From Escherichia coli 042 (lineage in GTDB: Bacteria > Pseudomonadota > Gammaproteobacteria > Enterobacterales > Enterobacteriaceae), in assembly GCF_000027125.1 (NCBI RefSeq), contig NC_017626.1: a DNA stretch of 64,000 nt. One strand, given 5' to 3'. This document shows positions 10,991 through 11,413 of the stretch, in pieces. Numbering within the stretch: position 1 is the first letter of the stretch; every line of letters begins with the position of its first letter. Made by a program: the position numbers and the translations under genes. The notes beneath the pieces were generated by a model that saw nothing but the letters and a program-made list of their open reading frames with translations, had not been told where the DNA came from and ran no database searches.

Positions 10991-11413
10991 TCACCCCCTA
11001 AAAAACTCTTTCCGATACCACTCTACAACCCCCTCAAAAGGGTAATTTTTACGCACCTGTGGCAACGCAATAATTTTTCCGTCAAAATCCCAGAATGACC
11101 TCTCAATGATCTCTCCGCCGTTTACCGCATCCAATACCAGTACCCGCATATTTTCATCCAGGCCAATCGTTCCTTTATCAAAGGCTTTATGATGTATCGC
11201 GCAAAGCGCCAGGCCATTGGGAATTTCACAAGGGCCACCATGTTGTTTCCATTTTATATGTGTCGCTTCCAGTGAGACGGTGGAGTTGCCGTAACAAATA
11301 TTAAAGCTACATATTGCGCACTGGTAGTTATAAGCGCGTAATACATGTTTGCGAAATAATGGGTCACGCTGCTTACGGATTTGCTGGAGAGCAAAAAAAG
11401 GCTCGTCAGCGAT
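10991..11413 (-). pseudogene. HNH endonuclease domain remnant, 5'-truncated (no in-frame start)
   Basis: hand translation of the reverse strand gives ...QCAICSFNICYGNSTVSLEATHIKWKQHGGPCEIPNGLALCAIHHKAFDKG... (CxxC plus H-N-H signature); open frame bounded upstream by a stop with no ATG; overlapping 76-aa ORF 11254-11484 is in another frame. Confidence 0.55.

Follow-up and report, generated by a model that had tools for sequence, protein, structure and literature searches.

The DNA between positions 10991 and 11413 of the window, the 64,000-nt stretch of Escherichia coli 042 that was analysed as a whole, is with a probability of roughly 93% the pseudogene of a two-domain modification-dependent restriction enzyme, built from a sulfur-binding domain (SBD) and an HNH nuclease domain, that was inactivated by a single 436-nt deletion. 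As such it is an ordinary decayed restriction-enzyme gene, flagged as a pseudogene by RefSeq in hundreds of E. coli genomes, and in itself it matters little. What has to be corrected is the account of its loss: the gene was disrupted by an internal, repeat-flanked deletion that spared the start codon and not by truncation upon insertion of an island, the same gene has decayed independently in several ways at the nanS locus, and the nanS-proximal nuclease pair forms the fixed edge of a defence-island hotspot. The locus is a clean small example of the turnover of modification-dependent restriction genes. The remnant and its 5' side comprise the following features:

10991-11413, minus strand: HNH reading frame of the remnant (translation, NF045808, Pfam HNH_2, RefSeq pseudogene, alignment to intact alleles)
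11393-11399, minus strand: run of seven T (T7) just 3' of the deletion junction (sequence)
11408-11415, minus strand: deletion junction, AAATCGCT (alignment A1; junction present in 367-370 of 5426 genomes)
11408-11427, minus strand: kept first 20 nt of the coding sequence, ATGGCTTCCAGTAAATCGCT, with the ATG at 11427-11425 (alignment A1)
11254-11427, minus strand: out-of-frame ORF of 57 codons from the original ATG, MASSKSLTSLFLL...WKRHI and a stop (translation, ORF list)

Translation of the minus strand over 10991-11638 gives a remnant frame of 140 codons (IADEPFFALQQIRKQRDPLFRKHVLRAYNYQCAICSFNICYGNSTVSLEATHIKWKQHGGPCEIPNGLALCAIHHKAFDKGTIGLDENMRV...EFFRG) that ends in a TGA stop at 10993-10991 and has a TAA stop (11416-11414) directly on its 5' side. 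This agrees with the initial annotation of the region, which had described an HNH signature in about 140 codons with no start and a stop just upstream, and whose coordinates are exact: they coincide with a pseudogene feature in the RefSeq record of strain FORC_031, which is 99.9% identical here and in which the same bases are assigned to family NF045808 and labelled by PGAP as 'incomplete; missing N-terminus'. The remnant is, in other words, a known feature already recorded as a pseudogene in public annotation. The statement that the frame has no start stands for the usual initiators, as no ATG, GTG or TTG occurs until codon 89, an ATG at 11149 that lies 3' of the HNH motif; it has to be qualified for the first codon, ATC at 11413, which is a permitted start in translation table 11.

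The frame corresponds to codons 151-290 and the stop of the SBD-HNH gene and runs from the end of the linker through the whole HNH_2 nuclease domain to the C-terminal tail. Against the NCBIfam model NF045808 it scores 187.6 bits (E = 2.5e-55, profile positions 149-284 of 284), which exceeds the curated cutoff of 180 bits, and the Pfam model HNH_2 (PF13391) matches its residues 32-86 with E = 3.4e-08; judged by these scores, the similarity to the HNH family is far above chance. The catalytic and zinc-ligand residues are all kept, namely the CxxC, the H in LEATHIKW, the N in PNGLALC and the HH in AIHHKAFD. A match of the remnant to IscB is weak and sub-threshold (24 bits against a cutoff of 175). 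An RNA gene as the explanation of the region was dropped after an Rfam scan of 10300-11700 gave no match at E <= 1.

NF045808 carries the family name "phosphorothioated DNA-binding restriction endonuclease", and the profile match identifies the remnant as the C-terminal half of such an EcoWI-type SBD-HNH enzyme. In enzymes of this type the N-terminal SBD recognises phosphorothioated (PT) DNA, and foreign DNA with this sulfur modification is cut. Of the features that define this type, the remnant has the C-terminal HNH_2 domain with CxxC and H...N...H(H) and is orthologous to intact genes at the same locus. It lacks the N-terminal sulfur-binding domain (profile positions 1-148 are absent and codons 7-152 deleted), which bears out the earlier remark on the loss of the N-terminal part, and it lacks a complete ORF with an in-frame start, the original ATG having been put out of frame by the 436-nt deletion. 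The intact gene of 873 nt (290 aa) lies at the same position in strains F9792, PapRG-04-4 and NC101, and the remnant is collinear with it between the island cargo and nanS. The intact allele matches NF045808 over positions 2-284 with 438.6 bits; in its 33.2 kDa protein, the SBD of ScoMcrA (crystal chains 5ZMO, 5ZMN and 5ZMM) is matched by residues 5-142 and the HNH of TagI by residues 170-250.

The proposal that the remnant is the relic of a nuclease-based defence gene thus holds, the ancestor being a modification-dependent restriction enzyme, and the search for an intact ancestor at homologous loci, which had been recommended at the time, finds it in about 1700 complete E. coli genomes. The further suggestion of a homing gene is unsupported, since the family is that of the SBD-HNH phosphorothioate-dependent restriction enzymes. 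An HNH homing endonuclease was rejected; in thousands of E. coli genomes the locus occupies a chromosomal position with defence-island cargo on one side and nanS on the other. Among the homologous proteins returned by a search, most were fragments of fewer than 250 aa, and none was an intact representative of the allele class seen in the window.

The nature of the lesion can be read directly from alignment A1, in which the window is compared with F9792 and PapRG-04-4 and shows one internal gap of 436 nt (columns 834-1269); blastn of the window against F9792 gives two collinear blocks. The upstream intergenic region, the ATG and the first 20 nt of the coding sequence are near-identical to those of the intact strains, with the 20 nt themselves being identical to the 5' ends of the F9792 and PapRG-04-4 genes. 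Upstream of the gap ATGGCTTCCAGTAAATC is kept, on its 3' side the alignment resumes at GCTGACGAG, and genomes with an intact gene match the junction probe exactly as far as base 11408. The description of the gene as 5'-truncated therefore has to be given up: its 5' end survives from the upstream intergenic region through the start codon to nucleotide 20 of the coding sequence, and the loss is internal. A single deletion of 436 nt in the lineage of the window removed nucleotides 21-456 of the coding sequence, that is codons 7-152. The deletion removed the whole SBD and linker and shifted the frame: as 436 is not a multiple of three (remainder 1), the original ATG now opens a nonsense ORF, and the HNH frame has lost its start.

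In the intact gene, AAATCGCT (nt 13-20 of the coding sequence) and AAATTGCT (nt 449-456) form a direct repeat with 7 of 8 positions alike, in which exact sharing is limited to the 3-nt GCT. Slippage or microhomology-mediated recombination between these two copies would have made the deletion. Such a mechanism is consistent with the 8-nt repeat at the junction; as repeats this short are common by chance, and a direct-repeat search of the intact gene yields many of them, we can only infer it.

Compared over the C-terminal 134 codons, dN/dS is 0.82 between the window and NRG 857C or A22, which both bear the deletion (nine non-synonymous and three synonymous changes), as against 0.03-0.13 among intact alleles, and the substitution classes of the remnant and intact alleles differ with Fisher p = 0.0015, the remnant side consisting of only 12 changes. 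The substitutions between the two remnant lineages look neutral and constraint is relaxed. We infer that the remnant has no expressed product, although 140 codons without a stop, intact HNH residues and a permitted ATC start count against a dead gene.

ATC is a very weak initiator, and a functional short stand-alone HNH nuclease that starts from this rare codon at 11413 is very improbable. In its favour, initiation at ATC is allowed in table 11, nothing is missing from the HNH motif, an NCBI protein model (P0001, a 141-aa 'HNH endonuclease' in a cluster of 82 member sequences) starts with M-ADEPFF, and SprMcrA truncated in its SBD is active as a non-specific nicking enzyme in vitro (PMC7461809). 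However, the 13 nt upstream (GGCTTCCAGTAA) contain no Shine-Dalgarno-like purine run, the ATC is directly preceded by an in-frame stop and falls within the ORF of the original ATG, dN/dS between the remnants is about neutral, current RefSeq annotation calls a pseudogene, and an unregulated non-specific nickase is expected to be harmful.

Similar objections apply to a nuclease that is phase-variable or rescued by slippage, in which one additional T in the T7 run would create a 144-aa ORF from the original ATG (MASSKSLTSLFF-ALQQIRK...HNH). A run of seven T is short for efficient slippage. The T8 version reads through in frame in silico, and the tract sits right after the junction, with five clustered differences from the intact allele (CTGGGTTTTGA to CCTTTTTTTGC), but T8 is found in none of the about 370 complete genomes that bear the junction and a frame-restoring T8 variant in none of all 5426 genomes (the T8 probe reaches 99.0% at best, with a gap of 1 nt). 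The length change in NRG 857C is a different one and still leaves the frame unrestored, and substitution is neutral-like; this route is likewise very improbable. There is only a faint chance that the remnant is an SBD-less HNH nickase expressed conditionally by either route, through the ATC or through +1 slippage in the T7 run that joins it to the kept putative promoter and ATG; if so, it would act as a non-specific nuclease at a low level, such as an effector of a toxic or abortive-infection-like kind. Since SprMcrA-S nicks DNA non-specifically in vitro (PMC7461809), an expressed product of the remnant would more likely be harmful than useful.

For the pseudogene, the extent of divergence from its intact relatives also has to be considered. 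From intact alleles, including that at L003 5142-5566, the remnant differs by about 11% (dS 0.24-0.35), whereas the operon and intergenic DNA that flank it, at about 96-97% identity to F9792, are less divergent. The protein P0002 is a mosaic of a window-type C-terminus and an intact-type core. The gap between remnant and intact alleles is more than decay alone explains and probably reflects an old divergent allele class together with recombination within the gene.

In a survey of 5426 complete E. coli genomes, any part of the SBD-HNH gene is present in 4859, at least 80% of its length in 1707 and the exact 436-nt junction of the window in 367-370. The survey also contains fragment classes beyond those of the window, K-12 and O157. 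At the same locus of K-12 MG1655 (L005 5032-5237), between yjhR and nanS, a 'restriction endonuclease' pseudogene is a remnant of the same gene that likewise arose from a deletion between short repeats, here the direct repeats ACAGCAG..AATT; it consists of some 250 nt from the N-terminal SBD part, has lost its start codon and lacks the HNH domain, and is the complementary fragment to that of the window and an independent event. In O157 strains the C-terminal end of the gene is altered, and EDL933 (L008 2488-3339) has a 283-aa version in which this end is replaced. Among relatives, a further deletion of 1 nt lies just 3' of the junction in NRG 857C, and P0001 and P0008 have altered C-termini or core residues, by which decay can be seen to continue. 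These alleles indicate that the SBD-HNH gene decayed independently in several ways at the nanS locus, namely in the window, NRG 857C, K-12 and O157.

A second nuclease gene next to the remnant has been lost as well, and both flank a region that is kept:

11428-11526, no strand: kept divergent intergenic region between the nuclease genes (conserved in all aligned strains)
11527-11631, plus strand: C-terminal stub of a second HNH endonuclease gene, LLPVCPNCHAMLHRRKPPFTPEELKALMDANKSN and a stop (translation, alignment A1, RefSeq pseudogene)

The second gene is divergently transcribed, has an intact form of 216 aa (651 nt) in PapRG-04-4 and is intact in about 1239 genomes; its intact protein consists of a ScoMcrA head-like N-terminal region and a McrA-type HNH. 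The rest of the gene was removed by a 583-nt deletion (junction 11526-11537; columns 124-706 of alignment A1 in comparison with PapRG-04-4) between the imperfect repeats ACAGGAAGTAAA and ACAAGCAGCAAA. At this junction the window reads ACAGGAAGTAAA while F9792 and NRG 857C read ACAGGCAGCAAA, which suggests different crossover points, and hence a recurrent deletion, or a later mutation. Taken with the intact SBD-HNH gene, the intact second gene implies that the ancestral locus was a divergent pair of HNH nucleases, both of which have been lost in the window. The intergenic region contains an 18-nt inverted repeat (TTGCGAGCATGATCGCAA, 11451-11468) that is kept in all aligned strains and may serve as an operator or have arisen by chance. 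A scan of the minus strand over 11414-11640 with the sigma-70 consensus gave no promoter-like site, with totals at the level of shuffled sequence.

On its other side, the remnant borders on defence cargo:

930-3821, plus strand: DrmD-like SNF2 helicase (PADLOC)
3842-6946, plus strand: type III methyltransferase, 1034 aa (PADLOC)
6949-10329, plus strand: type III restriction enzyme, 1126 aa (PADLOC)
10986-10990, no strand: boundary between conserved flank and variable cargo (end of homology, GC drop)

The SNF2 protein scores 658 bits against the DrmD model of PADLOC and stays below the NCBIfam DISARM cutoff (950), and the three-gene operon at 930-10329 looks like a type III restriction-modification (R-M) system with an extra SNF2 partner and not like canonical DISARM. 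Homology to PapRG-04-4 and NRG 857C stops 3-5 nt past the stop codon of the remnant and continues in F9792, which has the same cargo; the GC content falls to 26% in 10501-11000. The initial annotation had proposed that the nuclease gene was displaced when the current operon arrived, so that its 5' end would have been lost upon insertion of the SNF2/type III genes, and the remnant does adjoin low-GC mobile defence cargo. Yet the operon adjoins the 3' end of the nuclease gene and not the missing 5' part, and the 5' end, the start codon and the upstream region are present. In F9792 the same operon (96.3% identity over 4940 nt) stands together with an intact nuclease gene, while in NRG 857C and A22 the deletion junction and allele of the window occur beside a different, classical type III R-M system. 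Because F9792 keeps the intact gene and NRG 857C and A22 differ in cargo, the arrival of the operon was not the cause of the loss; displacement is refuted by alignments A1 and A2 and is left with next to no probability.

The cargo at this border varies widely from strain to strain. Beside the nuclease gene lie McrBC in NC101, a DUF262 protein in PapRG-04-4, remnants of KpLE2 (yjhR) in K-12 and integrase and transposase fragments in EDL933, in which Zorya II is on the other side. The nuclease gene marks the border of a defence-island hotspot, a border that stays in place while the cargo is exchanged between strains. In EDL933, the Zorya II genes occupy the usual place of nanS and nanM. The stretch of 26-34% GC in the window also contains an ORF of 100 aa (10376-10678, minus strand) which has no family match in PADLOC or NCBIfam and is kept together with the operon in F9792 and FORC_031. 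Between this ORF and the convergent restriction gene there is a strong hairpin with a 15-bp stem (10341-10373).

The closest functional precedent is EcoWI, an SBD-HNH enzyme of E. coli that cuts GpsAAC/GpsTTC DNA and restricts dnd+ plasmids (PMC7461809); enzymes of this type were characterised in that study and used in another (PMC9521924). The results on PT-dependent cleavage and restriction of dnd+ DNA apply only to EcoWI and its homologues (PMC7461809). EcoWI, with a quoted mass of 33.4 kDa (PMC7461809), resembles the intact allele (33.2 kDa) in size and family, a likeness that is limited to these two points, and that the intact allele is EcoWI itself is a lead; neither PMC7461809 (main text and supplement) nor PMC9521924 gives a sequence or accession for EcoWI. 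While the intact allele matches the family profile end to end, the remnant matches its C-terminal 136 positions, and the copy in the window, having neither a sulfur-binding domain nor an in-frame start, cannot be a PT-dependent enzyme.

ScoMcrA, a type IV restriction enzyme with the order head-SBD-SRA-HNH (PDB 5ZMM, 5ZMN and 5ZMO), has an SBD like that of the intact allele, and the neighbouring 216-aa HNH protein aligns to its N-terminal head region (residues 29-93). By contrast, the E. coli locus has no SRA domain and its domains are split over two divergent genes; the similarity to the proteins of the locus is distant (E about 1e-7), and both genes are only stubs in the window. The remnant itself resembles SprMcrA-S, which has the HNH domain without most of the sulfur-binding domain and was turned by this truncation into a non-specific, PT-independent nicking enzyme in vitro (PMC7461809). 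By analogy, a product of the remnant, if one was ever made, would probably have had a similar activity. SprMcrA-S differs in having a start codon and being expressed, whereas the remnant has no canonical start and shows no sign of constraint.

The genes nanS, nanM and nanC lie immediately to the right of the remnant region, and the window is part of the E. coli chromosome. Three tandem tRNA-Leu(CAG) genes at 55348-55669 on the minus strand fit the leuQPV cluster and a chromosomal placement. In the window, nanS (11639-12646, minus strand) is an uninterrupted ORF with 97% identity to K-12 NanS over 326 aa. RefSeq gives only a partial 'sialate O-acetylesterase' pseudogene for nanS (L001 13724-14068) in FORC_031, F9792, NC101 and others, and a 29-aa hypothetical protein is annotated over the 3' end of nanS in the same genomes; either these pseudogene calls are artefacts of annotation or the strains concerned carry a lesion.
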